This document shows positions 6,066 through 48,023 of a stretch of DNA of 64,000 nt, in pieces. Made by a program: the position numbers and the translations under genes. Under the pieces are notes generated by a model that made no database searches, was not told the origin of the DNA, and was given only the letters and a program-made list of their open reading frames with translations. Numbering within the stretch: position 1 is the first letter of the stretch; the number at the start of each line of letters is the position of its first letter. This stretch comes from a virus, in the IMG/VR virus record IMGVR_UViG_3300025011_000027, positions 27,967 to 91,966 of that record. One strand, 5' to 3'.

Positions 6066-7730
6066 CTATTTAAGTGGACTTTTAACAACTGGAGGAACAT
6101 ACCCCTTACCTAGTAAGTAGTCTATAAATGATTTATCATCGGACGCATCTGGAGAAGTATTAGCAGGACTAGGGCTAATCCAACCATCATTAGTTGGAGA
6201 GCTTAATTTATCTGATTGATCAGTGTTAGGATCGGTATAATCTATTGAGTCAGATTGGTGAGAATCTCCGTAGTTTGAACTATTATTTACTACAGGTAAA
6301 GATAAAGAACGACTTAAAGCCGAAGGGTCTAAAGATCCCGAAGAAGGATCGGTTGCGTAACGTCCTCTAGTTACACCAACTGTAGTTTCGTAATAAAAAG
6401 TACTATCATTACCTTTTGAATCAAGCTGAGACACACTGAAAATATTGTCTACTGACTCAATATAGCTTTCCTCGAGGGAGTCTTGATTAAACAAGTATCT
6501 ACCTATTGTGATAGATGGGTCACCTTTTAGTCTTAAAGTACCATTTAGCATATCAGGAGCCCACCCATATGCTTTGTACAGCCACATGTTCATTTTTACT
6601 GATAACTGCACTTGTAGAGAATCAACTCCGAAATTCAGTACGGGAATTGCAGGAGAAGATTTAGACATTATTTGCAGACCATATCTATAGATATAAGCCT
6701 TATTAAACTTTGGGTTAGAGGGGAAACTATCGTCACCTTCATTAGCCGTCTTTTCAGCATCAGTACCATTACCAAACATATCACCACCGGAAGTAATAGC
6801 TGCTTTATACTCTAAGTCACCTTGAGTAAATAGGGAGGGATAAGTAAAGAAGTAATCATAAGTTTCTGCATCAGACGAACCCATATCGTCTTCAATAATA
6901 TCTTCGTTGATAATTGTAACTGAAGGCCACCATTCAGTACCTAGAGCTGATTCAGCAAAAATGTATTTTCCGTTTTTATCCTTGAAAGGAGTGTTTCTAT
7001 GCATGATAATAGGGCCATCTTGAGCATCAAATACAAACCATTCACACCAAGGAAGGTTAGCATATTGGTCTATGACTGAAGCAATACTTCCTGACATCGA
7101 CTGAAGAGTGATCCAGCTTAATGCATAATCGTCTAAAACTTGCACTAAAGGTCTAAGTAGAGGAATATTTGGAGTTTCTGCTTGCATTGCTTTTATCCAT
7201 GGGGTAATTGTCGATTCGATGATTGAAGGAATTAATTTATTCAGAGGAGTTACTGCATCACTCATATTTGGAAGTATTCCTAAGTTAGTCTGCGCTTCAG
7301 TTCCTGTAATTTGAGGACCAGGATTAACATCAGAACTGGGAGTAAGTTGTCCTGGTATATTAGCAACATAATAGACTTCATATTTTTGTACTAATTTACC
7401 ATAGTCGTTTCCATTTATAGTAATTGTTCTTCGTATTTTACCAGAACGGTCAATGACCTTAGTCCTACGCTTATTAGTCACGAATCCGCGCATTATGAAC
7501 TTAGGGTCACCAGTACGAGACATCTTTATTTCAACGTAATCCATGTTAGATAAAATTCTATGCCACGACTTCTCCATGGTGAGAAGTAACGACCACTGAC
7601 CCATAGGTTCAGCTAAACTTTTATGAGTGTTAACTTGAAGGATATAAGGAGTTAAGTCATAAACAGTGGCCCCATGCCACGCTATAACTGATAGTTTAGG
7701 AGCATACGTTTTTACAGTAAACATGGTCAT
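6066..7730 (-). CDS. baseplate hub protein (gp27-like)
   Basis: DLTPYILQVNTHKSL...ITINGNDYGKLV...GTLRLKGDPSITIG; follows the tape measure gene. Confidence 0.7.
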   Translation of the reverse strand: MTMFTVKTYAPKLSVIAWHGATVYDLTPYILQVNTHKSLAEPMGQWSLLLTMEKSWHRILSNMDYVEIKMSRTGDPKFIMRGFVTNKRRTKVIDRSGKIRRTITINGNDYGKLVQKYEVYYVANIPGQLTPSSDVNPGPQITGTEAQTNLGILPNMSDAVTPLNKLIPSIIESTITPWIKAMQAETPNIPLLRPLVQVLDDYALSWITLQSMSGSIASVIDQYANLPWCEWFVFDAQDGPIIMHRNTPFKDKNGKYIFAESALGTEWWPSVTIINEDIIEDDMGSSDAETYDYFFTYPSLFTQGDLEYKAAITSGGDMFGNGTDAEKTANEGDDSFPSNPKFNKAYIYRYGLQIMSKSSPAIPVLNFGVDSLQVQLSVKMNMWLYKAYGWAPDMLNGTLRLKGDPSITIGRYLFNQDSLEESYIESVDNIFSVSQLDSKGNDSTFYYETTVGVTRGRYATDPSSGSLDPSALSRSLSLPVVNNSSNYGDSHQSDSIDYTDPNTDQSDKLSSPTNDGWISPSPANTSPDASDDKSFIDYLLGKGYVPPVVKSPLK

Positions 7731-16311: not shown

Positions 16312-17196
16312 TTATAGTTGAGCTTGTACTGACTCCGGAAGTGATTCGACATAAGCTTTTAAGTCAGCTTGATTTCTTACTTTTCCCAGACGAGCTAAGT
16401 CCATAGGCTCAATTTCACCTTTATTCAAGGCATCGGTTACAACATCTTGAATGTCTGATTTGCTCAAGGTTCTTGAACCACCAGTAGCGGCTGCGTCACG
16501 CTTTTCCATTACTACGAATCCAGTTGCGGGAGAAGTAACAGGTTGACTCTTAATTAACTCAATATCAGCGGCAAGAGCAACTTGACCTTTTAAGCTTGCT
16601 TCCAAACTCTTTGCAAGAACCATTACGGTTCCTTGAAGAGCTGCAATATTAGCGTTGGTCTGAACTGACATTGCTTGAACATTTTTAGCAAGGGCTCCTA
16701 GTACTTCTGAAGCTTCAAGTACTTCTTCGTACTCATCGTTAAAGTTCTTGAAAAGAGGTTCTTCTTCCTCAACAGGTGCATTCTTACTTACAGCACCCTT
16801 TGGAGTTACTTTCTTACCATGATTGGTGATAAGTGTACCTTGAGAACCTTTGTGCGGCTCATCAGGATCCTCATCCTCTTCAGTAACTGGCCCGCCGTTT
16901 GCTTTACCGTTCTTGTCGGTACCTTCCTTATTCTTCTTAACTTTTTCTTCTGGCTCTTCTTCTCCGCCGCCCATTTCATTTTCTTCATCTTTGGGTTTTT
17001 CTTCGCCTTCTTCTTCCTCACCAGTTCCCTTGCCCTTTGCGCTTTTGAACAAGTCTCTGAGGAAGTTAAGACCTTTTCCACTGAATGTAATCGCATCATG
17101 TGCGCCACCGGAAGTAGACTTTTTAAGTTCGTTCATGTGGTCTTCAAATTCTTTAGTCAATTTGTTACCGCTCCTTTTATTTAAGATAGCCCGCAA
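16312..17196 (-). CDS. head scaffolding protein
   Basis: Acidic, low complexity; between protease and major capsid genes. Confidence 0.7.
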   Translation of the reverse strand: MRAILNKRSGNKLTKEFEDHMNELKKSTSGGAHDAITFSGKGLNFLRDLFKSAKGKGTGEEEEGEEKPKDEENEMGGGEEEPEEKVKKNKEGTDKNGKANGGPVTEEDEDPDEPHKGSQGTLITNHGKKVTPKGAVSKNAPVEEEEPLFKNFNDEYEEVLEASEVLGALAKNVQAMSVQTNANIAALQGTVMVLAKSLEASLKGQVALAADIELIKSQPVTSPATGFVVMEKRDAAATGGSRTLSKSDIQDVVTDALNKGEIEPMDLARLGKVRNQADLKAYVESLPESVQAQL

Positions 17197-17941
17197 ATTG
17201 CAGACGCTTGACCAACCTATAAGCTTCGTTTTCTTTTACTCCCTTACACTTAACAAGGTGGAAGTAGGCACTCTCTGATCCTTTTCTAAATCGTCCCTTT
17301 TCGTCGTAACAATTGTGGTCACATTTACCCCAAAGAACATCTTCGATTGGAAATCCAGTTAGGGCTTTACTCGCTTCTTCAGTAACATGACCATCATCCA
17401 AGTTTTGATTGAGAAGAGGAACTCCGTTACCTGTAGTTAGTGACTTAGCTAAAAACTCAGCGAACGTATCAGTGTTAGCGGGCTTAGGAGTAAGTGCTAC
17501 ATCGTCCACCCTCGTCTTAGTGAGTCGATTCGCCTCCGTCTCTAGTATCGCCCCCTCTACTGAAAACCCGTGATTCCTTTCGGGGTCGTCTTTTTCGGCT
17601 TGCAGTAGGTCCCAAGCTGCTCTTCCTGGCTCACTATCATATAGCTCAACCAAGTGATAAAAAGCAGGACCTCTTATGCCTTTCTTGAGAGTACTTCCAT
17701 CAGAGACAATTTTAGCTTCTAATGGTTTACCCAGAACGTATTGCGGTCCTTTTAGATGATCGTAATTCAAATGACCTTTTGTCAAATAAGAACTAAATTC
17801 CATTCCAGGAACTACTAATTCTTCGCCATGTTTGTCTTTAGTTTCAGTACTCGCGACACCCCTAAGCAATCTCTTACGTTCGCCCTTTATTAGCTCTTCG
17901 TCACGTTCACAGATAACAAAAAAGCTAAAATCTGCCGGCAT
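17177..17941 (-). CDS. prohead protease
   Basis: GVASTETKDKHGE, LNYDH, GFSVEG, VALTPKPANTDT. Confidence 0.88.
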   Translation of the reverse strand: MPADFSFFVICERDEELIKGERKRLLRGVASTETKDKHGEELVVPGMEFSSYLTKGHLNYDHLKGPQYVLGKPLEAKIVSDGSTLKKGIRGPAFYHLVELYDSEPGRAAWDLLQAEKDDPERNHGFSVEGAILETEANRLTKTRVDDVALTPKPANTDTFAEFLAKSLTTGNGVPLLNQNLDDGHVTEEASKALTGFPIEDVLWGKCDHNCYDEKGRFRKGSESAYFHLVKCKGVKENEAYRLVKRLQFAGYLK

Positions 17942-21797: not shown

Positions 21798-24149
21798 TTA
21801 ATGTTCTAGATTATAGTGGATTGTTTCCAGTGTGTCCGTTTCAGCATCTTCCAATTGCTTCTTAGAATACTCGTTATCAGGATGGGCTAAAATTTTAGTA
21901 ACAAGGTTGCTATGAGGATCAAAACCTTCATTATTAACCGACGATGGTCCTAACTTCTTAGCATAGTTTATAATTTCCATAATAGGCTTACTATTAAGGC
22001 TCTCTGCACTGACTTTGTTACCAGGATGAGTTAAAACTTTTTCAGCTAGCTTGCTTTTTAAAATAAAACCTACATGCTCCTCAGACGTGTTAGCATAATT
22101 GGACCACTCTCCTGCCCATTTACCAAGTTGAGATAAAGATGCAGTTTCAAGAGTTTGATTATCATATTTATACGGATGATCTTTCTTTATCTTGTCAATA
22201 AAACCTTGAGTAAGTTCATCCTTCATCTGTTCAAGTATAGTTGAGCTTCCTTTAGTAGTTTTTGGAGAGGAGATTACCGATTCTACTGTCTTTGTCTTCT
22301 GACTCGTAGTGACAGTAATTTTAGGTTGTTTAGTACCTTTAGACTTATTAGGCACATATTCAGCATATAAACTATCTGCGGCTTCTTTCATGCTGCTCAT
22401 ACCCATACTGTAATACTTATCATAAGCTTTACTACCATATTCCTTACCAGATAACAATTCTGCCAATTTACGCTTTGTATCAGTATGTGAGGACTTATTA
22501 TTGTCGTAATCCTTCATAATTGATTTGTAAGCAGCTTGCTTTACTTTCCACTTCTCTTTGTCAGCTTTTTGTTCTGGAGTTAGTTTCGGAGCTTTCTTTT
22601 CAGGTAAGTTCTCCACTTCGTCCAAGTTTACTTCAGCATACTTTGTTTTCTGCTTTACGGTGAAATGATGTTTACCATCTTTCTTTTTGTATCCTACAAT
22701 GGTGTATCGTGCTTCCATTGACATTAGAACTTCGTCCTCACCAGAATGAGAGCTTAAATGTTTAATACTAGCTGCGTATTTACTTCCACCTTCTAAAGTA
22801 AATATACAACTATTTCCACCACTTCCGTGACCTGAAAAACCATTTGCAGTACTCTTGCTACTTGACCAACTACTGGTTCCACGCATATCAATAATAAGAT
22901 TTGATCCTGTTGACTTTATGAGCTTATCAAGTAATTCGTCGTTTACTGATATACCTCTATACAGAGGAGCAGTACCTGCCCATTTAGGCATTACTTTTAA
23001 AGCTTTTTCAATGTCAACACTTCTCTTATAATATTCTTGGTATGTGTAATTATTAGGATCCATTTTCTTAGTTTGAACTGATCTTATTCCAGAAGAACCA
23101 GAACCTGAGAATGAAGTAATAGCACTTGCATAATGGTCAGCCGCTTCATCTGAAACACCTAGACCCTTAAAATAGTCAATCTTTTCAGATTTACTTACTT
23201 CATAACCTTTATGACCTTCTTTTCCATAACGATGTGTAACGCCGACTCTGCCTCGTGTCTCTTGACTACCTCCAACCTCTCCAGGTCTTCCAGCGTGATT
23301 GAAGTCTCCTGAACCGGGGCCACCCTTTCTTAATACAAGCAACATGTCAGCACCCCTTTTACTTAATATTCTCCCTAGTCCTAGAAATATTGATTTACTA
23401 AATTTGGGTTTTATCGACTTAACTTCTTTCAGATAAATCATAGTATGAGTTGCCGCAGTTCCTGAGGAAGTTGTCCCTGCAACATCGTCTATCCTAGAAA
23501 TTTTGAATCTTGACCCAGCGGACATTAAGACTTCTTCTTCCTCTTTAAATTCACTGATAGACCTAATGCTTGCTCCATGCATGCTTCCCTTTTCTAAAAT
23601 AAGCATGACCGATCCATGATGACCATATGCTTTTGGACCTTTACTGCCAAAACTTAGTGCAACCTTTTCTGAGCTTGACCAACTACTTACTCCCAACATG
23701 TCGATAGAATCTCCGCTTTTATGTGAGTCTCTTAGCGACTGAAGATTACTTGGTTCAATTCGTATTCCTCGATAGATGGCTCCTGACTTCCATTTTGGAA
23801 GCTTCTTAATGAGTGCTTCCAAGTTCTTAGCATGATTAACAAGTCGATCTTCTTCCTCTTTATTGTCTCCCTTATAAGTTCCACTACCAACTTGTCTAAT
23901 TTCAGTATAGTCAATACCAGTAAAGTCAGTTATTGCCTTTGCGTATGCTTTAGCATGCTGCTCATCAACTCCAGTTTCTTCCATTATATAAGCAGCTTTT
24001 TTAGATAGTCCATTGTATGTTGAAGGATGATGCTCACTGGTTCTTCGACTTGTTCCACCTTTTCCTTCACTACCACCCACTTGACCAGGTCTCCCTGAAT
24101 GTCCAAAATCCCCTGATCCTACGCTACCCTTACTGAGTACTATTTGCAT
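21798..24149 (-). CDS. tandem ADP-ribosyltransferase (two VIP2/Alt-like R-S-E domains), probable virion cargo; possible internal start at 23345
   Basis: ART1 IYRG...VSSWSS...EEEEVL; ART2 LYRG...TSSWSS...GEDEVL; each preceded by M-x-x-VL-x-KG-x-x-GSGDF-x-H-x-GRPG-x-VGGS. Confidence 0.85.
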   Translation of the reverse strand: MQIVLSKGSVGSGDFGHSGRPGQVGGSEGKGGTSRRTSEHHPSTYNGLSKKAAYIMEETGVDEQHAKAYAKAITDFTGIDYTEIRQVGSGTYKGDNKEEEDRLVNHAKNLEALIKKLPKWKSGAIYRGIRIEPSNLQSLRDSHKSGDSIDMLGVSSWSSSEKVALSFGSKGPKAYGHHGSVMLILEKGSMHGASIRSISEFKEEEEVLMSAGSRFKISRIDDVAGTTSSGTAATHTMIYLKEVKSIKPKFSKSIFLGLGRILSKRGADMLLVLRKGGPGSGDFNHAGRPGEVGGSQETRGRVGVTHRYGKEGHKGYEVSKSEKIDYFKGLGVSDEAADHYASAITSFSGSGSSGIRSVQTKKMDPNNYTYQEYYKRSVDIEKALKVMPKWAGTAPLYRGISVNDELLDKLIKSTGSNLIIDMRGTSSWSSSKSTANGFSGHGSGGNSCIFTLEGGSKYAASIKHLSSHSGEDEVLMSMEARYTIVGYKKKDGKHHFTVKQKTKYAEVNLDEVENLPEKKAPKLTPEQKADKEKWKVKQAAYKSIMKDYDNNKSSHTDTKRKLAELLSGKEYGSKAYDKYYSMGMSSMKEAADSLYAEYVPNKSKGTKQPKITVTTSQKTKTVESVISSPKTTKGSSTILEQMKDELTQGFIDKIKKDHPYKYDNQTLETASLSQLGKWAGEWSNYANTSEEHVGFILKSKLAEKVLTHPGNKVSAESLNSKPIMEIINYAKKLGPSSVNNEGFDPHSNLVTKILAHPDNEYSKKQLEDAETDTLETIHYNLEH

Positions 24150-24153
24150 GCTG

Positions 24154-25593
24154 TCACTTCCTCCTAATAGCTAAAAGAATGCGCTTATGATCTTTCTCAT
24201 CAGCTTGGATTTCTTTAAGCTTATCCGCCGATTCTTCGTCCCCTGCTTCTTCAAACTATTTGATTCTTTCACCATAGTCCTTAATAGCTTTTTCTTCTCC
24301 TTTAAGGTCATTGGTTAGAGAGATTCTTTTAGCTAATAATTCACTTAATCCGATCATGGAATATTCACCTGACTTCTTAAAGGAGGTAACTACGAAACGA
24401 GCTTTACCTGATATAAGTACCTCTTCCTGTTCATCAAATGCGCTAAAGTCTTTAATGCTTGCTCCTAACCTTGTACCATTTTTAAGAACAAATATAACCT
24501 TATTAGCATAATTTCCTTCACTAAACTTCTTAGCGACATCTAACCCGCTGCTCCAGCTACTAACACCTAACATACTGAAATCTTCTCCAGTATATAGACC
24601 ATTTAAGTATTTTTTAAGAATTGCATTACTGAAAGATACTCCCCTGTAAAGTGTGCCTGTCTTACCCCACTTAGGAAGTATTTCGATAGATCTTTCCAAG
24701 TCACTACCCATCAATGCATACTTACGTTCTTCCTCTTTACTATTGAAGTTCTCTGAATTACCCATCTGAGCTGCGCGAATATCAGAGACGCTAGGTCCTG
24801 TAAAAAGAAGGATTGTCTCGACCAGCCGCTTAGCGTACTCAATCTCTACCCCTCTTCTATAAAAGACCCTATACTTTTCATCAAGCTCTCCAAGTTCTCT
24901 ATGACCTGAGGTACTTGAATTCTTCTTAAGTTGATACGCTACCCACTTATCCACTGTCTCTTGCCATATACGATGCGGAGCAAGCTCACCATCCCACTTC
25001 TTGTCAACGTCACTGAATACGTGCATCCTATTGTTCTTATATTTCCCTTCCTCTATCATGCCATCCGAAACTGCAATTAAACGTGGTTTATCGCTCTTAC
25101 TATCTACCATATACCAGTAACAATTCCAGTCCATTCCAATAGACCAAATTTGTGCCCATACTTCTGAACTATGAAGGGCGCCAACAACAAAGTCAGGACC
25201 GTTTTCATATGAATCATTTGGTTTATGAGCTTCAATAATTAGTTTTTTCACGTATAGACCTTTATCACTATTCTCTCTTTTCCATAAAGCTCTGTATCTA
25301 CGCTCAGCGGCAATTACTCTTGTGCTATTCAGTCCCCCGACAACACATGGAACATGCGTATGTCCAGATTCTATAGCTGCAAGTAGTTTGTGGTGTCCAT
25401 CGTGAAGGTCATAGTCATACCCAACAACTAAAGCTGGAGTAGGTTTACCTTCTTTAAAGTCTCGAACATATTGAGCAACCTTATCACGATTGATGCTCTT
25501 AGTAGTCTGATAAGGAGTATTAATTCTATTCGTTGGTATGTATATTGGGTTAGGTGCAGTGGTCTTATATGCAAACCTATTAGCATTGCCCAT
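24154..25593 (-). CDS. ParB/Srx-like + ADP-ribosyltransferase + half-ferritin protein; in-frame TAG at 24256-24258
   Basis: LHDGHHKLLAA (ParB/Srx); LYRG...VSSWSS...EQEEVL (ART); DLKGEEKAIKDY..RIK*FEEAGDEESADKLKEIQADEKDH (ferritin-like helices spanning the TAG); ORF track stops at 24256. Confidence 0.75.
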
Positions 25594-25627
25594 TAAAGTT
25601 TCACCTACTTATAATTATTAGCCGAAT

Positions 25628-25655
25628 AAAAAAGACTAGCGCATAATGGCTAGCC
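25628..25655 (-). terminator. intrinsic terminator
   Basis: GGCTAGC-CATTATGC-GCTAGTC-TTTTTT. Confidence 0.55.
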
Positions 25656-25671
25656 TTAGTTTAGCACGGAT

Positions 25672-26853
25672 TTACTTTTTTAGCACTACTTTAATGTCCT
25701 TGTCGGTCTGAGCGTTCTTCTTTACTTTTTGGGTGCCTCGACGTTGCTCTGTAAGCTTCGCAAAGAAGCTCTTGAACTCATTCCCGGCATTGTTTTTCCG
25801 CTCAATTGCTTGAGTGTAGAATGATTCAGGTAACTTTAGGGAATCTGCATAGGGCTTAAGCATTTTACGATATTCTTGGTCAGGGATAGCTTTGAGCTTA
25901 TCAAGCGCACTATCTACCGCGGTAAGGTCAAGATCAACTTTTCCCTTTGCGTACTCACGATACATGGTATTATAAAGAGGTTCTTGCTCTCCATACTGAG
26001 CGTTAGGATGATAGTCCAAACTCATATGATGAGAACCTTTGTCCTTTGAATATCTGAAAGCTTGCTCTTTATCGACACCTAATACCTTTCCTTGTTCAGT
26101 CAATATGAAGTTTCCTGCATGAGAATCGAAGTTCCCAACTGTCCAATCCAGTACGTGTTCGCGCTGAATATCTTGAATCTGTTGAGGTGTAAGTGACTTC
26201 CAGTTAAGCTCTTTCAAATTACCCATTACACCTGGCACAAGAGGTTGAACTGATCCTAGTTTGCCTCCCTTGATTCTATCAGTATGAACTGGAATATGAT
26301 CACCGTATTTGAAGATTCGAGACGCTATATTTGAAACCGCTGTCTGAACATGCGCCCTAAATTCTTCTCTTTGTCCGCCCTTTGACTCCGCAGGTTTAAA
26401 TATATATTGGCGACCTTTATCGTCAGTAAAGATATCCTTCTTCCCTGCTCCCCCTAGATGAGAACCGCTGCCTTGATTCTTCATTTCTGATATCTTTGGA
26501 AGAGTCTCTTTTGCTATCTGACCATCTTTAGTCAAATAGATATGCTGCCCGTTCATGGTTACCCAACGCCCGCCTGGATACTTCTTGTCCATACTTTCTC
26601 CAAATGACTTTTGTAACGTATGTCTTACTGCCCACTGTGCGGCTTGCTCACTGGTCCAACGAACGGTCGGAGTGTTATCACCAAGCTCATTCTTTTTCAG
26701 TCCTTCAAAGACTTGAGTTACAAGTCCGTAAAAAGCTGCTCCTTCTTCTCCTTGATCTCCGTATTCACTTTTGACTATTTGCTTTGCTCTTGACCAGTGG
26801 TTCTCATTATTAAGATCCGCTAGACTTCTCTGGATTTGATCGACTTCACTCAT
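25672..26853 (-). CDS. HipA / PI3-PI4-kinase-like protein with N-terminal virion-protein motifs
   Basis: Gly loop LGGAG, YIFKP, HVLDWTVGNFDSHAGNF, VLGVDKEQAF; GRWVTMNGQHIYL motif. Confidence 0.75.
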   Translation of the reverse strand: MSEVDQIQRSLADLNNENHWSRAKQIVKSEYGDQGEEGAAFYGLVTQVFEGLKKNELGDNTPTVRWTSEQAAQWAVRHTLQKSFGESMDKKYPGGRWVTMNGQHIYLTKDGQIAKETLPKISEMKNQGSGSHLGGAGKKDIFTDDKGRQYIFKPAESKGGQREEFRAHVQTAVSNIASRIFKYGDHIPVHTDRIKGGKLGSVQPLVPGVMGNLKELNWKSLTPQQIQDIQREHVLDWTVGNFDSHAGNFILTEQGKVLGVDKEQAFRYSKDKGSHHMSLDYHPNAQYGEQEPLYNTMYREYAKGKVDLDLTAVDSALDKLKAIPDQEYRKMLKPYADSLKLPESFYTQAIERKNNAGNEFKSFFAKLTEQRRGTQKVKKNAQTDKDIKVVLKK

Positions 26854-26887
26854 TAACTTATCCCCCTCTTATTAATGTAATGCTATA

Positions 26888-26916
26888 ATATTACTACATA
26901 ATGAGAGGACTGTCAA
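26888..26916 (-). promoter_or_regulatory. sigmaA-type promoter for the kinase/ART cluster
   Basis: TTGACA-17-TAATAT. Confidence 0.65.
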
Positions 26917-27137
26917 ATTACTGACAGTCCCTTTGGTTTGAAGTAATGCTTTTCAAGTACCCCTTTATAATTCGTGATCTCGACGGCGTCCAATTTACCT
27001 TCGCGCTCTAACTTTCTTAAATCCTGACGAGTAATGCCAGCAGCTCTTTTTAGAATAGCTGCGCGAACTGGTTTACCTGTTTCTCCTTCAAAGTGATCAC
27101 AAATGGCATGAATATTAGCTAACCAGATAGGCTTCAT
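26913..27137 (-). CDS. hypothetical protein (possible winged helix)
   Basis: GITRQDLRKLEREGKL. Confidence 0.5.
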   Translation of the reverse strand: MKPIWLANIHAICDHFEGETGKPVRAAILKRAAGITRQDLRKLEREGKLDAVEITNYKGVLEKHYFKPKGLSVI

Positions 27138-27292: not shown

Positions 27293-27550
27293 TTACTTTT
27301 CCTCCATTAATTCATATTTTATAGACATTTCGCGGATCTCCATGAACTTTAGTTCTTTGTCGTATCCGTCGAATTCTTCCCAAAACTTTTTGGCCTGTTT
27401 CCAACTATCAAATCTTTTTGCTTTATTAAGCTTAATAGTACAGTCGGTATGATGTTTAATGGTAAGATGATTCTTTGCAATGTACTTAAACTCTTGACCA
27501 CGTTGAACGATGATAACAAATTTACCTTCAACTTTTGCTTCAGTTTGCAT
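27293..27550 (-). CDS. hypothetical protein
   Basis: RBS, coupled ORF. Confidence 0.55.
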   Translation of the reverse strand: MQTEAKVEGKFVIIVQRGQEFKYIAKNHLTIKHHTDCTIKLNKAKRFDSWKQAKKFWEEFDGYDKELKFMEIREMSIKYELMEEK

Positions 27551-27565: not shown

Positions 27566-27799
27566 TTAGTTTTTAGTTAGTTTTTCATACTCCGCAACCG
27601 TCATATCCTCTTCAGTTACGTCCTCAGCTCTTAAGATAAGATAGTTTCCCTCATGGATTACGGTATATTCATTTGCCATAATACTGAATTTGAGTGCGCT
27701 AAACTTCTGACCAATTTTATCTTTATACCAGTTTCCATACAAGTGAGCCTTAGAAGCTCTAACGACAGTTAGCACCCGTACTCCTTTTCTTAGACTCAT
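27566..27799 (-). CDS. hypothetical protein (SH3-like; paralog of 44997-45326)
   Basis: LYGNWYKDKIGQ motif. Confidence 0.55.
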   Translation of the reverse strand: MSLRKGVRVLTVVRASKAHLYGNWYKDKIGQKFSALKFSIMANEYTVIHEGNYLILRAEDVTEEDMTVAEYEKLTKN

Positions 27800-27800
27800 G

Positions 27801-28190
27801 TTAGTATACCCTTTCTTCTGACAGGTTTACGGCGTGTACATTCTCTAAGGTATAGAAACAAGGTTGCTGATCATGAGCTTTAACCCATTCGTCGAAGACT
27901 TCTTGGAATTTACGGGTAAGCTCTGCTTCTGCTTCGTGGGAGATACTATCCAAATACCCATCTGAAGATTCTCCGCATTCTTCTCCAGCGTCACATCTTA
28001 GCTGCTCAAGGATAGTTTCAGCATCAATAGTTGGCCTGAACCATTTAACTTGACCAACATAGATATCGCGTCTCTCACCACAATCAAATGCGTCCCGAAG
28101 TGCTTCCTTCTTAGTTTCACAGGTTCCATTACCCCAAACACCGTCTTCAGTTGCATTCCAAGACCACAGTCCTTCTCTAATCTCTGACAT
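27801..28190 (-). CDS. conserved phage hypothetical protein
   Basis: WGNG..ETKKEAL..A...IYVGQ...IDAETILEQL; RBS AAGGAG. Confidence 0.6.
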   Translation of the reverse strand: MSEIREGLWSWNATEDGVWGNGTCETKKEALRDAFDCGERRDIYVGQVKWFRPTIDAETILEQLRCDAGEECGESSDGYLDSISHEAEAELTRKFQEVFDEWVKAHDQQPCFYTLENVHAVNLSEERVY

Positions 28191-28222
28191 TAAAAAACAC
28201 TCCTTTCATCATACATACTAGA

Positions 28223-28252
28223 TATATAACAAAAGAAGCGTATTTTTTAAGT
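28223..28252 (-). promoter_or_regulatory. phage-specific promoter motif CTTAAAAA-N13-GTTATATA (copy 1 of 7)
   Basis: Same motif and spacing at 7 sites upstream of minus-strand gene starts. Confidence 0.7.
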
Positions 28253-29588: not shown

Positions 29589-31259
29589 TCATTCATCGTC
29601 TAGTATCTCAAACAGTAGTATCTTAGCACCTTCATTCTTCTTCAGTGCGTTATCACTTGGTTTCTTTTCTGGAGTTGCAGCTTTCTTTTTGTCTTGAGCA
29701 GTAGGCTTAGAGTCTTTCCCCTCTTTGCCTACCGCCTTCGACGCACCATCTTTTCCTTGTCCCTTAGAAGACTTAGGATCACCGCCTCCCGCGTCTTGCT
29801 CGGCCGTAGCCTGTTCTTGAGCTAGTGACGCTGACATTGCTGACATATACACGGTGCTATCTGGAACGTCTCCGAACTCTAGATCTCCTTCTAATCCCAT
29901 GGAGCGTCGAGATTCGTTAAACGTCATACCAGCTTTAAGTTGTTTACTAATCAATTCTATTCGTCGATCTTCGTCGGCAAGGTCTGTATCATATATCATA
30001 ACTAAATCGTCATAACGAGGTTTAATGACTACTTTAGTTAACCAACTAGCATGTCCAAATATAATGCTCTCTAATCCCTCTTGCTTAGCGTCAGAAAGGA
30101 TTTCATCTTCATTAGCTCCATTACCTATGCTCATCCCACCGCTGGATCCTTTGTCAATTGTAAAGTTAACTATTGACGGGTGCGCTCTGAATGCTGCGGT
30201 CTTTAACTGAATAATAATCCTCAAGAATTCAGCAAATTGAACGTCTTTTGGAAGCTCTCTGATCTTAATTAACTCAGCTTTGAAATTCTCATCCGCAGGG
30301 ATAACTGGCACACGTTGATAGTCTCCAGAACCACTTTGGTCAAGTACTTGTCTTTGAAATGCTCCAAGTCCGATAGGGTCAACGTCACCATATAGAAATA
30401 GCATACTTTCAGGACTGTCTTGATTGAATAGTCCATCATTATATGCCCAAGCATTCAACCACGTTTGTGTAGCCATAATAGACTGCTCTAGTGCCGACCC
30501 TGCTCCATATGCCCATCGGTCAATCTCGACACTTGGGTTGGTAATGTTTACGCTCATTTCTTCAGCGGTCCAGCATGCTACAGGTAAAGCGTCAATCACT
30601 TGAACATATGCGGCGTTAGTAACATCCAATCCATAGGTCTTAAATATTCCTTCATACGATGCGCTTCTGGTGGTTTTGTTCTTCTTAGCAAAGTCCATCA
30701 GAACTTCGATAACAGGACGAATCGTAGTACCGTCCACAAGATGATAAGAGCAAGGTGCTCCAGTACGATCTTTAGTAATGACCATAGCCTTTCGATCATA
30801 TGTAAGCTCTTGGTCTGTGCATACCGCGGCGAAGTCGATAAACCCATTTGGATGAATCATAGGATTGACGTTCTCTATGATCTTCTCAACCTCTTTACAA
30901 CGGCGTATAACGTCCTCTGTGGGGCTATAGTTAGGGTCGGCGTGATTCTCGTTCACCACTCTATATCCGACCTGCTTACCAGGCACTACGACCTTCTTAG
31001 AGAGGTATTTAACTTGTGCTACTCTTGCCATAATGATGATCTTATCTATTAGCGATTTCTCGCGTGATAATCTTAGTAAGTCGAACTGAATAGAGCTATT
31101 TGGTTTGTGGTATCCTGTTCCCGCCATGTCTCGTGCTTGTGAATACTGAGAGAAGAACTTACCTCTAGCTGCTTGCTTTTGAGCTTCTTCTTCCATTTTC
31201 TTGGCGAGCGTTACCCGCTCCGGAACGATTAGCCCATTGTATTGTGCCCACTCAGCCAT
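29589..31259 (-). CDS. portal protein
   Basis: DQELTYDR, YHLVDGTTIR, AYVQVID, YGAGSALE, YNDGLFNQ, KDVQFAEF, MTFNESRRSMGL. Confidence 0.9.
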   Translation of the reverse strand: MAEWAQYNGLIVPERVTLAKKMEEEAQKQAARGKFFSQYSQARDMAGTGYHKPNSSIQFDLLRLSREKSLIDKIIIMARVAQVKYLSKKVVVPGKQVGYRVVNENHADPNYSPTEDVIRRCKEVEKIIENVNPMIHPNGFIDFAAVCTDQELTYDRKAMVITKDRTGAPCSYHLVDGTTIRPVIEVLMDFAKKNKTTRSASYEGIFKTYGLDVTNAAYVQVIDALPVACWTAEEMSVNITNPSVEIDRWAYGAGSALEQSIMATQTWLNAWAYNDGLFNQDSPESMLFLYGDVDPIGLGAFQRQVLDQSGSGDYQRVPVIPADENFKAELIKIRELPKDVQFAEFLRIIIQLKTAAFRAHPSIVNFTIDKGSSGGMSIGNGANEDEILSDAKQEGLESIIFGHASWLTKVVIKPRYDDLVMIYDTDLADEDRRIELISKQLKAGMTFNESRRSMGLEGDLEFGDVPDSTVYMSAMSASLAQEQATAEQDAGGGDPKSSKGQGKDGASKAVGKEGKDSKPTAQDKKKAATPEKKPSDNALKKNEGAKILLFEILDDE

Positions 31260-31314
31260 AACGCTACGCCTCCTAAATTAAATATGTCTTATAAATGATA
31301 TCAGAACTATGTAT

Positions 31315-31342
31315 AGTATAGCGGGTTTTCCCCAAGAGTCAA
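31315..31342 (-). promoter_or_regulatory. sigmaA-type promoter for the portal operon
   Basis: TTGACT-16-TATACT. Confidence 0.55.
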
Positions 31343-31343
31343 C

Positions 31344-31385
31344 AAAAAGAGAACGCGGAGAGGGACCAACCAATCGCGTTCTCTT
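31344..31385 (-). terminator. intrinsic terminator closing the ncRNA
   Basis: AAGAGAACGCG...CGCGTTCTCTT-TTTG. Confidence 0.7.
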
Positions 31386-32000
31386 ATTTGGTATGATGTG
31401 TTGTTGAAGGCATCATACTATTTGTGCCAGAGCAGGTCGCCTACTACCCCTCTGACTTGCATCATACGTTTTGCTTCCTAAAAATACACTATATGTTGAG
31501 GGATAAAGAGTGCATAGACCTTCACTGTCGGGAATTCTGCGGAAACTCCCACCCAATGTCTCTCAAAGTCTCTACACGAACTGAAAGATACATGCTAGTC
31601 CAACATTCAGTATACCACCTTCGTAGGTCTGATAGTCAGAGCTATGCAACATGATAACACACCACCTTATGATTCAATTAGTGTAAGCAATGCCACCTAT
31701 ACTTACGTACTCCCTCGAAGTGTCTTTATCACACTTCTACACTAATGCTTTTCAGCATCCCAAAATTAACTATTTTTAAGAGATAAGCGAACCTGGATTC
31801 AGTTCCCAATTAGATTGGGCACCTCCATAGAGTTCGCTTCTATTTCTCTTGAATGCTTCTTACCCTCCCAGAATAAGCATTCGACACACTGCCCTCACTT
31901 TCAGATTCTTACTTGCAGTGCTTCCCTAGTTACTTAATCCTGGCTGTTAGTTCATCAGCGTACTCATTTACTCGCGGGCAATATTATCCGCCGCCACCAA
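31345..32000 (-). ncRNA. large structured ncRNA candidate (ROOL/GOLLD-like size class)
   Basis: ~650 nt with no sense-strand ORF, packed with nested helices, ends in a terminator. Confidence 0.65.
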
Positions 32001-32004
32001 GATG

Positions 32005-32259
32005 TTAGTCCAAACTCGTTCTGCGCTCACTGAGCTTCGGTTGTTTCTTACGGTGTACATTCTTACCGTCTTTACAATCGGGACACAAGCATGCTACCGC
32101 TCTGTGGCTGTGAGTGACTAATGAAGAGCCAAGGAAACGTAGTCCTTGGAGCGTTCGTTTACATTGATCGCACTGAAAGGGAAATAAAGTATCACACTCT
32201 TGCCAAACAATGTTTTGCTTTATTGGTGAACCTTTAAACCCATCAAACGCTCTAGCCAT
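32005..32259 (-). CDS. hypothetical Zn-finger protein
   Basis: CDQC...CPDC. Confidence 0.55.
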   Translation of the reverse strand: MARAFDGFKGSPIKQNIVWQECDTLFPFQCDQCKRTLQGLRFLGSSLVTHSHRAVACLCPDCKDGKNVHRKKQPKLSERRTSLD

Positions 32260-40616: not shown

Positions 40617-41018
40617 TTATCCTCCTTGATTATAATTTTCTACATATACTACGTTCTTGATGCCAGCTAATTTTATTGCTTCAGCGCATGCTTTGCACGG
40701 TTGAGTAGTAATGTATAAAGTTGCATCTTGCAAGCCAATAGACCGTCTTTCTGCCTGTCTGATAGCATTTATCTCGGCGTGTACTGCTACGCATAAATCT
40801 AATCGTTCCCCACTAGGTATACCTAACTCTGACCTTATACATTTCTGAGTATCAGAACAATTTAGTTGCTGTGCTGCACTTCCATTGTAGCCTGTAGAAA
40901 CGATCTCATTATTTATTACCATTACTGCTCCGACCTTGCGTCTCAAACAAGTTGTTCTATCTGAGACGCAAGCAGCTATGTTTAGGAAATATTCTTGCCA
41001 ACTACTTCTTCGCTTCAC
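40617..41018 (-). CDS. dCMP deaminase (ComEB-like)
   Basis: TCLRRKVGAV, STGYNG, HAEINAI, PCKAC. Confidence 0.92.
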   Translation of the reverse strand: MKRRSSWQEYFLNIAACVSDRTTCLRRKVGAVMVINNEIVSTGYNGSAAQQLNCSDTQKCIRSELGIPSGERLDLCVAVHAEINAIRQAERRSIGLQDATLYITTQPCKACAEAIKLAGIKNVVYVENYNQGG

Positions 41019-41460
41019 GTATACACCATTCAGTAGTTAACAATTCGATTTGAGTTGGCATCCAGGGAACTCTTCCAAATCGAGACTGAACATAGTAGTA
41101 AGGAGCTGTGTTGATAGAGTCAACATCAGGAAGCTGAATGCCAATCATTACGTCTTCTTTCCAGAATGGTAATCCACAGAGTAAACCAGTAAGCATTGCT
41201 TCAGTTGCAAGTCCAAACGTCATTCCGTCAGTTTTTCGATATGCAGCTTCGAATACTGCTTTAGGTGACCAGCTCATGTATCCGCCCTCGTACTTAACTA
41301 GATAACCAGGGTGGAATGTCGCCACAATGGTACCATCAGATTTAGCTTCATGCTCCACTACTGCGTTTGAGACATCAATAGGTCTGTCGAATTGCTTACC
41401 TGCTTCTTCTGCTGTCATAGGCTTTGCGTGAATGATCTTTGATCCAATGTACTTTTCCAT
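41002..41460 (-). CDS. DUF2829 / Tad2-like anti-defence protein with an extra N-terminal domain (ORF track extends to 41619)
   Basis: MEKYIGSK...GYLVKY..GYMSWSPK.VFE.AY + MTFGLA.EAM..G...APYYYV..RFGRVPW..TQIELL...W; RBS AAGGAGG before MEKY. Confidence 0.65.
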   Translation of the reverse strand: MEKYIGSKIIHAKPMTAEEAGKQFDRPIDVSNAVVEHEAKSDGTIVATFHPGYLVKYEGGYMSWSPKAVFEAAYRKTDGMTFGLATEAMLTGLLCGLPFWKEDVMIGIQLPDVDSINTAPYYYVQSRFGRVPWMPTQIELLTTEWCIREAKK

Positions 41461-41648
41461 TACTTCCTCCTTAGGCCATATTTGTTTCACTGACTTTAAT
41501 TGATCATGGATACTACAAACTGCATTACATGATATAAAGTCTATCCATAGTTTGCAGCGCGGACAATTGACATTACCATTTTCTCTAGGGGTATAATGCG
41601 GACACTGAGACAATTGCATTCCTCCCTTAAGTACTCTTGATCTTTAGA

Positions 41649-47432: not shown

Positions 47433-48023
47433 TTAAGAGCTTACCGGTGCGTCAAAGTTAATCTCGATACACTTTCTCGATGCTAGATAGTCGGCCATAT
47501 GGACGAATATCTCAATCCGGCAAGAAGGTTTTGGTAATACTTCTTTCTTCGTCTTGTAGTCTGAATTCCACTGGCCCATGTGCGGGGCGATCAATCCGGA
47601 AATAAACGCCGCGTGGGCAGCACTCTCCACATCAAGGTCAATCTTCTTAAATAGCTCATTTACCAATAAAGGATGCTCAGTCACAGTGTAATGATTGCGG
47701 GGATTAAAGCCATTTTTACAAGTATCGTGCAGAATGAGGGCAGCAATGATGAGGTCTTTTTCTGTATCCGTATATGCCTGAACGGATTCATTTCTGAATA
47801 GCTCAAGGGCTATTCTCACAGCCGCTTTGGTATGTCTTACCAGACCACCTTTTCCAACACAGTAAGCAGGATGATACTTTCCTGTGCTACTTGCAGGAAT
47901 GTCCCAGAAGTATTCAGGCGCCACTGCAAGAGTGTTAAGTACCAATCTTCTGATTGCGGCACTTTTGATCTGATCTATTTCCATTCCGAATACATCAAGG
48001 ATAGCTTGTTCTGACATTTGCAT
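47433..48023 (-). CDS. HD-domain phosphohydrolase
   Basis: PASSTGKYHP, GGLVRHT, LHDTCK, HMGQW, VHMADYLASR. Confidence 0.85.
   Translation of the reverse strand: MQMSEQAILDVFGMEIDQIKSAAIRRLVLNTLAVAPEYFWDIPASSTGKYHPAYCVGKGGLVRHTKAAVRIALELFRNESVQAYTDTEKDLIIAALILHDTCKNGFNPRNHYTVTEHPLLVNELFKKIDLDVESAAHAAFISGLIAPHMGQWNSDYKTKKEVLPKPSCRIEIFVHMADYLASRKCIEINFDAPVSS

Follow-up and report, generated by a model that had tools for sequence, protein, structure and literature searches.

What are ADP-ribosyltransferases (ARTs) and a kinase doing among the head genes of a phage? Enzymes carried in phage heads act at the first moments of infection, and few of them have been studied beyond T4 Alt, a packaged and injected ART. 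The question is raised here by a 64,000-nt stretch of viral DNA (the window), i.e., bases 27967–91966 of the 91,966-bp IMG/VR virus record IMGVR_UViG_3300025011_000027, which CheckV rates as complete. A cassette of three genes in this window encodes a 783-amino-acid (aa) protein with two ART domains (ART1 and ART2), a 445-aa protein that joins a ParB-like domain to a third ART domain (ART3), and a stand-alone kinase (Table 1). On the evidence of gene context, we consider it fairly likely that the three ARTs, the ParB-like domain and the kinase are cargo enzymes that are loaded into the capsid and injected together with the DNA. The set is compact and unfused; its members are three ART paralogues that differ in their substrate loops, a kinase whose family numbers more than 1400 cluster representatives and, elsewhere in the genome, a matching hydrolase.

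Nearly all genes of the phage lie on the minus strand. In the order of transcription, the small and large terminase genes are followed by those for the portal, a 396-aa protein, a 129-aa open reading frame (ORF) and three smaller ORFs, then by the three cassette genes, four virion-type proteins, the head protease, a scaffold-like acidic protein and the major capsid protein. Genes for sheath, tube, chaperone and tape measure come after the capsid gene, and this uncultured phage with its ~92-kb genome is therefore assigned to the contractile-tailed phages. The cassette sits within the head-assembly block, with the portal and MuF-like genes on one side and the protease, scaffold and capsid genes on the other; about 1.4 kb with four small ORFs (129, 77, 85 and 74 aa) separates it from the MuF-like gene. 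The 396-aa protein encoded by that gene has no match in Pfam or PHROGs, and an Atlas structure search relates it to clusters with Phage_Mu_F or Phage_min_cap2 at template-modelling (TM) scores of 0.49–0.55; since its support consists of structural look-alikes, its MuF identity is only probable. A first-pass annotation, made from the sequence alone, had placed three large enzymatic genes between MuF and a head–tail adaptor. The genes are real, and the MuF gene upstream is recognised through look-alikes with TM scores of about 0.5 only; the adaptor was not borne out, the sole match of the downstream neighbor being a PHROG tail-fibre family. When the cassette was compared with 50,697 phage records by megablast, no match was returned.

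All three ART domains are recognised by Pfam profiles above the curated cut-offs, namely ART1 by PF03496 (residues 66–228 of the 783-aa protein; 37.6 bits, cut-off 23.4), ART2 by PF01129 (residues 426–503 of the same protein; 35.2 bits, cut-off 22.3) and ART3 also by PF01129 (residues 299–418 of the 445-aa protein; 34.8 bits, cut-off 22.3). The units are mutually 33–38% identical (BLASTP E-values of 1e-27 to 1e-29; 3e-27 to 3e-29 for the pairwise alignments at 35–38% identity) and have in common a helical pre-domain, LPKW..YRG, SSWSS and E/Q-x-E-V-L, which on sequence grounds makes the domains paralogues. The catalytic Arg, the S-x-S motif and the E/Q-x-E motif are intact in three of three units. 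Among proteins of solved structure, the Vis toxin (PDB code 4xzj) comes closest in sequence. Fold comparison covers ART3 among the three units, and the ART3 model (block-mean predicted local distance difference test, pLDDT, of 71–92) likewise matches Vis best (Z 15.9, root-mean-square deviation 3.4, 177 residues), with Tre1 (6drh_B; Z 15.4) and HopU1 (Z 14.6) close behind; 8za7_B follows at Z 13.6, and enzymes of the C3, iota-like, VIP2 and SpvB types at Z 12–14.

The divergence lies in the ADP-ribosylating turn-turn (ARTT) loop, which reads SEFKEEEE in ART1, SSHSGEDE in ART2 and SAFDEQEE in ART3. A hidden Markov model (HMM) of the ART core found 50 domains in 46 retrieved proteins, and of the 39 domains with a readable loop 34 are of the ExE type; QxE occurs in ART3 only, so that the Gln of ART3 is a derived state. 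The recognition loop has diverged on a retained ART core. These results agree with the first-pass annotation, which had read the three catalytic loops exactly so, as EEE, EDE and QEE, and had stressed that they differ. According to the targeting rule in the literature, ExE enzymes modify Arg and QxE enzymes modify Asn (PMC7827354). The three domains would accordingly be mono-ADP-ribosyltransferases of the arginine type, one of them a Gln variant, and each, by way of its own ARTT loop, would modify a different host or defence target.

QxE is also found in the guanine-specific ART ScARP, in which the Gln of the motif binds guanine (PMC7827354), and this raises the question of whether at least the ParB–ART3 protein acts on nucleic acid, the ParB domain bringing a ScARP-like ART to host, rival or phage DNA. 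Such a role would fit the fusion of the sole QxE member among the related domains to a ParB-type domain, and other relatives of that domain are joined to nuclease-type domains such as PF18431. The ART3 model, however, matches protein-targeting ARTs at Z 13–16 and Scabin at only Z 4.0, which makes a pierisin-type, DNA-targeting fold unlikely; furthermore, the aromatic position of the ARTT loop is Phe in ART3, in keeping with the C3 family, where it is Tyr or Phe, and not Trp as in ScARP (PMC7827354). The ParB domain itself is assigned with confidence (PHROG ParB-like families at E 4e-26; 46% identity to SPO1 gp2.12), but its motif is DGHHK where SPO1 gp2.12 has DGHHR, i.e., a Lys replaces the conserved Arg. 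Taken together, we regard action on nucleic acid as very improbable.

Relatives of the ParB domain that are 51–64% identical (in the retrieved proteins P0289, P0291 and P0296) have other C-terminal domains attached, including the nuclease-type PF18431, and because these effector domains vary, the ParB module seems to be a swappable N-terminal partner. Relatives with the full-length ParB-X-ART architecture were not found, and outside the ART part the model of the 445-aa protein has pLDDT values below 50 for both the ParB domain and residues 111–235. The gene ends at a TAG codon that is followed by 33 open codons and then by a TGA located 4 nt before the next ATG. If the TAG is read as Gln, the Pfam Ferritin profile spans it (E 5.7e-4; 20.3 bits, below the cut-off of 24.5). 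TAG terminates 24 of the 128 ORFs in the genome, which contains no tRNA genes, and amber recoding or a suppressor tRNA was therefore ruled out; two readings are left for the TAG within the ferritin-like element, namely a nonsense mutation and a leaky stop.

No profile or sequence match above threshold was obtained for the kinase in Pfam, PHROGs, NCBIfam or the PDB, PI3_PI4_kinase of Pfam reaching E 0.033 (14.5 bits, cut-off 27.1). Its model (pLDDT 84) matches PI4KII-alpha (Z 14.4, 238 residues), CtkA (Z 13.2), MavQ (Z 11.2) and HipA (Z 10.2), and Fam20-type kinases are also among the fold matches (Foldseek, fold search). The Gly-rich loop, the ATP-binding Lys, the D-x-H-x-x-N motif and the metal-binding Asp are all present, and an alignment of 13 relatives shows that LGGxG, Lys, Glu, Gln203, D-x-H-x-x-N and the later Asp are kept. 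With respect to the polyvalent kinase family of Iyer et al. 2017, of which the protein is a possible member, Gln203 is invariant and located in strand 199–204; on the other hand, the kinase does have a helical C-terminal part, and an insert is not apparent. The protein is thus predicted to adopt a PI4K-II/CtkA/HipA-type fold with every catalytic motif, the resemblance being one at the level of the fold, and it would phosphorylate further host or defence targets. Unlike in HipA modules, neither a HipB-type partner nor a HipA N-terminal domain was seen: the Pfam scans gave no match to HipA_N, and the neighboring ORFs are without family match, although no search was aimed at helix-turn-helix proteins. 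Profile searches and structure prediction therefore uphold the cassette as first described, i.e., three homologous R-S-E ARTs (two Pfam ART models above cut-off, an ART fold for ART3), a ParB/Srx domain and a HipA/PI-like kinase.

The argument for carriage in the capsid comes from the relatives of these enzymes. Domains of the same ART family make up the C-terminus of P0202, a Phage_portal_3 protein (34% identity), and of P0183, which is a MuF protein (31% identity), and are found in proteins annotated as 'minor capsid' in Porphyromonas phage 005b and cyanophage S-2L. An exhaustive search with the kinase gave 1455 cluster representatives at E ≤ 0.001; the closest relatives are 78% and 64% identical, and most of the best 150 of the 1455 have the kinase domain within proteins of 1000–7700 aa. 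A further 80 IMG/VR loci were retrieved with the kinase alignment as query (kinase domains 35–54% identical), and all 80 have the domain inside reading frames of 655–1607 aa (median 1140); with the kinase protein alone or the ParB–ART protein alone as query, no related loci were found. Six of seven sampled kinase frames contain Phage_Mu_F or Phage_min_cap2, and four of those contain Rho_N. The kinase domain is also part of P0032, P0035 and McProf gp54, the last being composed of a VG15-type N-terminal domain, the kinase and an ART, and annotated as a minor capsid fusion protein. Kinase and the same ART family occur within single polypeptides elsewhere as well (e.g., P0059 and P0141).

These findings have a published framework. 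ARTs are enriched in myoviruses, where they are encoded beside head genes and are probably packaged, and ART, ParB-like and kinase domains are linked to MuF or portal in polyvalent and head-linked phage effectors (PMC5512222, PMC9503650). Since probable packaging of head-adjacent ARTs is stated in these studies, the capsid-delivery reading applies a general model to a new phage, with precedents in head-linked ARTs including T4 Alt (PMC9503650, PMC5512222) and in Bxa-BAH (PMC11699363); the points of note in this member of the known class of head-linked effectors are the unlinked hydrolase and a header peptide, both described below. In mechanistic terms, the cassette enzymes would be synthesised together with the head proteins, enter the procapsid near the portal/MuF complex and exit with the DNA into the next host.

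The header is a peptide that the 783-aa protein carries twice, at residues 1–27 and 269–296, both copies reading M-x-[IL]-V-L-x-K-G-x-x-GSGDF-x-H-x-GRPG-x-VGGS. Met269 is in frame and has its own Shine–Dalgarno sequence, and the codons differ between the two copies; we propose that the gene arose by tandem duplication, with the two copies joined in frame. Among 119 proteins retrieved with the 783-aa protein, 100 carry the header in one to six copies (nearly all in two to six) that are 150–300 residues apart. The domains that it precedes are unrelated, and include Zeta toxin, Fic, 2H, PI3/PI4 kinase, Tpt1/PARP-like, ART-PolyVal, ParB_N and InPase; Nudix is one of the precomputed Pfam families of header-bearing proteins. 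In P0283, the header lies between portal, cargo and MuF domains. For 60 of 99 proteins, no more than 50 residues separate the start from the first copy, and what precedes it is often only a very short peptide, as is the case here. A back-translated header pattern hit 109 viral stretches, 80 of which contain 207 copies, and of the 20 positions in these copies 13 are invariant to 99% or more. The consensus of the header, which is about 20 residues long, is GG-P-GSGNFGH-A-GRPG-E/Q-V-GGS.

The header is probably a loading and/or cleavage tag, a role that would amount to loading and/or proteolytic release of each ART unit. More tentatively, it may be a general cargo tag that is read by the head-assembly machinery for loading and/or cutting, which in combination with the hydrolase would give tagged writers and, later, the phage's own eraser. 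If this is true, the header marks enzymes carried in the capsid and provides a sequence rule to predict virion cargo in metagenomic phages. The header is not tied to relatives of the head proteins of this phage, since none of the head proteins used in BLASTP (those of portal, protease and capsid, and others) matched anything in the 80 header-bearing loci. As a test for a protease site, VLxK-type sites were looked for, and none is present in the capsid or portal proteins; LxK-type matches occur once in the protease and twice in the scaffold-like protein, with no header after them. The C-terminus of the kinase is VVLKK and the read-through tail of the ParB–ART gene ends in LLAIRRK, both of which resemble vestiges of the sequence in front of the header. 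The header string occurs in none of the papers searched, and no junction peptide was found in what Iyer et al. 2017 (PMC5512222) write on linkers, cleavage and processing. In the Atlas search, no usable match was obtained with the C-terminal 238 residues of the 783-aa protein, the last 143 of which have no assigned domain; a likeness of the repeats in this tail to HeH/Rho_N was noted by inspection only and is not claimed.

Several observations weigh against packaging. In this phage, no head protein is fused to any of the three cassette proteins, and the header is confined to the ART1 and ART2 units and is missing from the kinase and the ParB–ART protein. The kinase gene is bracketed by a promoter-like site and a terminator-like hairpin, and a putative promoter motif, which aligns with eight further copies in the genome and is also found upstream of replication genes, heads the small-ORF block upstream of the cassette; because of these signals, expression may not be strictly late. 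Promoter-like and terminator-like matches are no commoner than in shuffled sequence. In addition, the ParB motif has Lys where its relatives have the conserved Arg, and the ParB–ART gene may be partly decayed, since its TAG falls inside the ferritin-like helix pair. One explanation that would accommodate the missing fusions, the restricted header and the kinase-gene and replication-type signals is that the enzymes are not packaged at all, and are made after infection for host takeover or a block of defence in the same cell, their position in the head block being due to insertion of a mobile gene unit. T4 ModA/ModB and the T7 Gp0.7 kinase are precedents for action in the same cell, and the other genes of this phage that relate to conflicts over nicotinamide adenine dinucleotide (NAD), i.e., the hydrolase and a Tad2-like domain, are encoded outside the head module. 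On the other hand, ART and kinase relatives are fused to portal, MuF or minor-capsid proteins, the header is common to portal- and MuF-linked cargo, and the cassette lies within an otherwise uninterrupted head-assembly block. We therefore consider enzymes that stay unpackaged rather unlikely, and favor capsid delivery.

The hydrolase is an ADP-ribosylglycohydrolase (ARH) encoded 17 kb from the cassette. It has all of the motifs GDAxGxPxE, SDDT and GGDSDST, and is nearest by sequence to ARH1, DraG, Tri1 and Lmo0067, although the DraG and Tri1 models (E 6e-20 and 8e-18) do not reach the equivalog cut-offs. Among the best fold matches of ART3 are the ARTs that partner Tri1 and Lmo0067, and an ARH is also present together with an ART in McProf-type prophages. 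By analogy with Bxa-BAH and Tre1-Tri1, the hydrolase probably partners the ARTs, either as an eraser or in immunity; it would remove ADP-ribose from Arg, and would in this way shield the producing cell during ART build-up or end the modification pulse. That no obvious immunity gene adjoins the cassette, as noted in the first-pass annotation, is correct, but the statement needs amending since an ARH1/DraG/Tri1-like hydrolase is encoded elsewhere in the genome. No Macro domain was found in this phage. The small ORFs adjoining the cassette are without assignment in Pfam, PHROGs or NCBIfam; this applies to the basic 74-aa ORF just upstream of the kinase gene as well, which is a candidate small binding partner.

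In Porphyromonas phage 005b (4828–7673), a MuF-type 'minor capsid protein' contains an ART that is 36% identical to ART1 and ART2, and behind it a small ORF and a gene for an ADP-ribosylglycohydrolase are located on the opposite strand, a layout that equals that of the published Bxa-BAH.

Another conceivable function of the cassette proteins is that of polymorphic toxins of the MuF type (Jamet et al. 2017) or of fitness factors, comparable to Bxa and Apk2, which would be released by lysis or borne by particles and hit neighboring cells, with the hydrolase and perhaps a small ORF providing immunity. By fold, the ART has its nearest neighbors in Vis, in Tre1, which is an interbacterial toxin, and in the Listeria ART–ARH pair; the ARH resembles Tri1 and DraG, the cassette is preceded by small ORFs without assignment, and Bxa-BAH-Bsi is a precedent within the head region of a prophage (PMC11699363). 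However, the enzymes are not fused to MuF, no immunity gene was recognised next to the cassette, from which the ARH is 17 kb away, and neither a secretion signal nor a receptor-binding domain was recognised, although no search was aimed at them. A toxin role of this kind is improbable.

The phage shares with Bxa-BAH-Bsi the combination of an ART and an ARH1-type hydrolase. In that system, encoded by the Bacteroides stercoris prophage PhiBxa, Bxa ADP-ribosylates arginine and an ARH1-family hydrolase of the prophage reverses the modification (PMC11699363); Apk2 toxins of the MuF type (PMC10083569) belong to the same group of known systems. The present ARTs, in contrast, are not fused to MuF, the MuF-like gene being separate, and they come as three paralogous domains together with a kinase and a ParB domain; furthermore, the hydrolase is adjacent in Bxa-BAH-Bsi and distant here, where a Bsi-like inhibitor was not identified. 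The Tre1-Tri1 pair of the Serratia type VI secretion system and the Listeria ART–ARH pair are similar both in their ARTs (Tre1 and 8za7_B match the ART3 model) and in their hydrolases (Tri1 and Lmo0067 match the phage ARH by sequence), but act as secreted interbacterial toxins with adjacent and partly binding-type immunity, whereas the phage ARTs belong to a head module with an unlinked hydrolase.

T4, with Alt, ModA and ModB, is likewise a phage with several R-S-E ARTs, and head-carried early host modification is our working model in this case too. Sequence similarity to Alt is weak (PHROG 832, E 2.6e-11 on ART1), however, the gene context differs, and the cassette proteins are not known to have a capsid-targeting sequence of the T4 type. 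Polyvalent proteins resemble the 783-aa (ART–ART) and 445-aa (ParB–ART) proteins in that each of these combines two effector domains, but the set here is split over three genes instead of forming one giant protein and has no zincin-type processing peptidase. Lastly, the kinase has the same domain and catalytic motifs as the MuF or minor capsid–kinase–Rho_N fusions and McProf gp54; unlike in those fusions, it is stand-alone, has an N-terminal part of 110 residues of its own, and lacks MuF, Rho_N and a DarT-like C-terminus.

Table 1 Features of the cassette and of related genes and signals, in window coordinates
Feature	Position	Strand	Basis or remark
ART1–ART2 protein, 783 aa	21798..24149	-	two fused putative cargo units and a tail
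783-aa protein, unit 1	header 1 24069-24149; ART1 23466-23954	-	
783-aa protein, unit 2	header 2 23262-23345; ART2 22641-23159	-	
783-aa protein, tail	21801-22619	-	Lys-rich linker and three ~45-aa repeats
ParB-X-ART3 protein, 445 aa	24256..25593	-	
ParB domain, residues 4-110	25264-25584	-	PHROG ParB-like families
Middle part of 445-aa protein, residues 111-235			no assigned domain
ART3 (QxE loop), ~residues 248-418	24340-24852	-	
Ferritin-like helix pair at end of ParB–ART gene	24154..24318	-	split by TAG 24256-24258
Stand-alone atypical kinase, 393 aa	25672..26853	-	
Kinase domain, ~residues 110-375	25729-26526	-	alignment and model
Kinase motifs			LGGAG 133-137, K153, E163, Q203, D243-S-H-A-G-N248, D261
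Terminator-like hairpin and T-run	25632..25657	-	just after kinase gene
Sigma-70-like promoter match, TTGACA, 17 nt, TAATAT	26888..26916	-	upstream of kinase gene; consensus match, partly in hairpin
74-aa basic ORF, isoelectric point 9.6	26913-27137	-	just upstream of kinase gene
Small-ORF block	27801-28190, 27566-27799, 27293-27550		upstream of cassette
Copy of 30-bp repeated motif ACTTAAAAA...TTATATATCT	28222..28251	-	putative phage promoter, between MuF-like gene and 129-aa ORF
MuF-like minor head protein, probable, 396 aa	28247..29437	-	directly after portal gene; structural look-alikes
Portal protein	29589..31259	-	five PHROG portal families, best E 7e-11
Head protease	17177-17941		in head block downstream of cassette
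ADP-ribosylglycohydrolase, 318 aa	44041..44997	-	PF03747, 231 bits over full profile

The Tad2-like (Thoeris anti-defence 2) domain mentioned above is the C-terminal domain of a 205-aa protein (41002–41619, minus strand; PF11195, 26.1 bits, cut-off 25), which is the second NAD-signal-related gene of this phage. Near the ARH gene, the minus strand also encodes a dCMP/cytidine deaminase (40617–41018; PF00383, 85 bits) and an HD-domain protein (47433–48023). The ~1 kb upstream of the portal gene (31260–32258) contains no ORF of at least 100 aa. The gene for a 554-aa tail protein (6066–7730, minus strand) ends in a TAG stop, after which the frame stays open for 246 codons; this stretch looks like the next gene, lying in frame.

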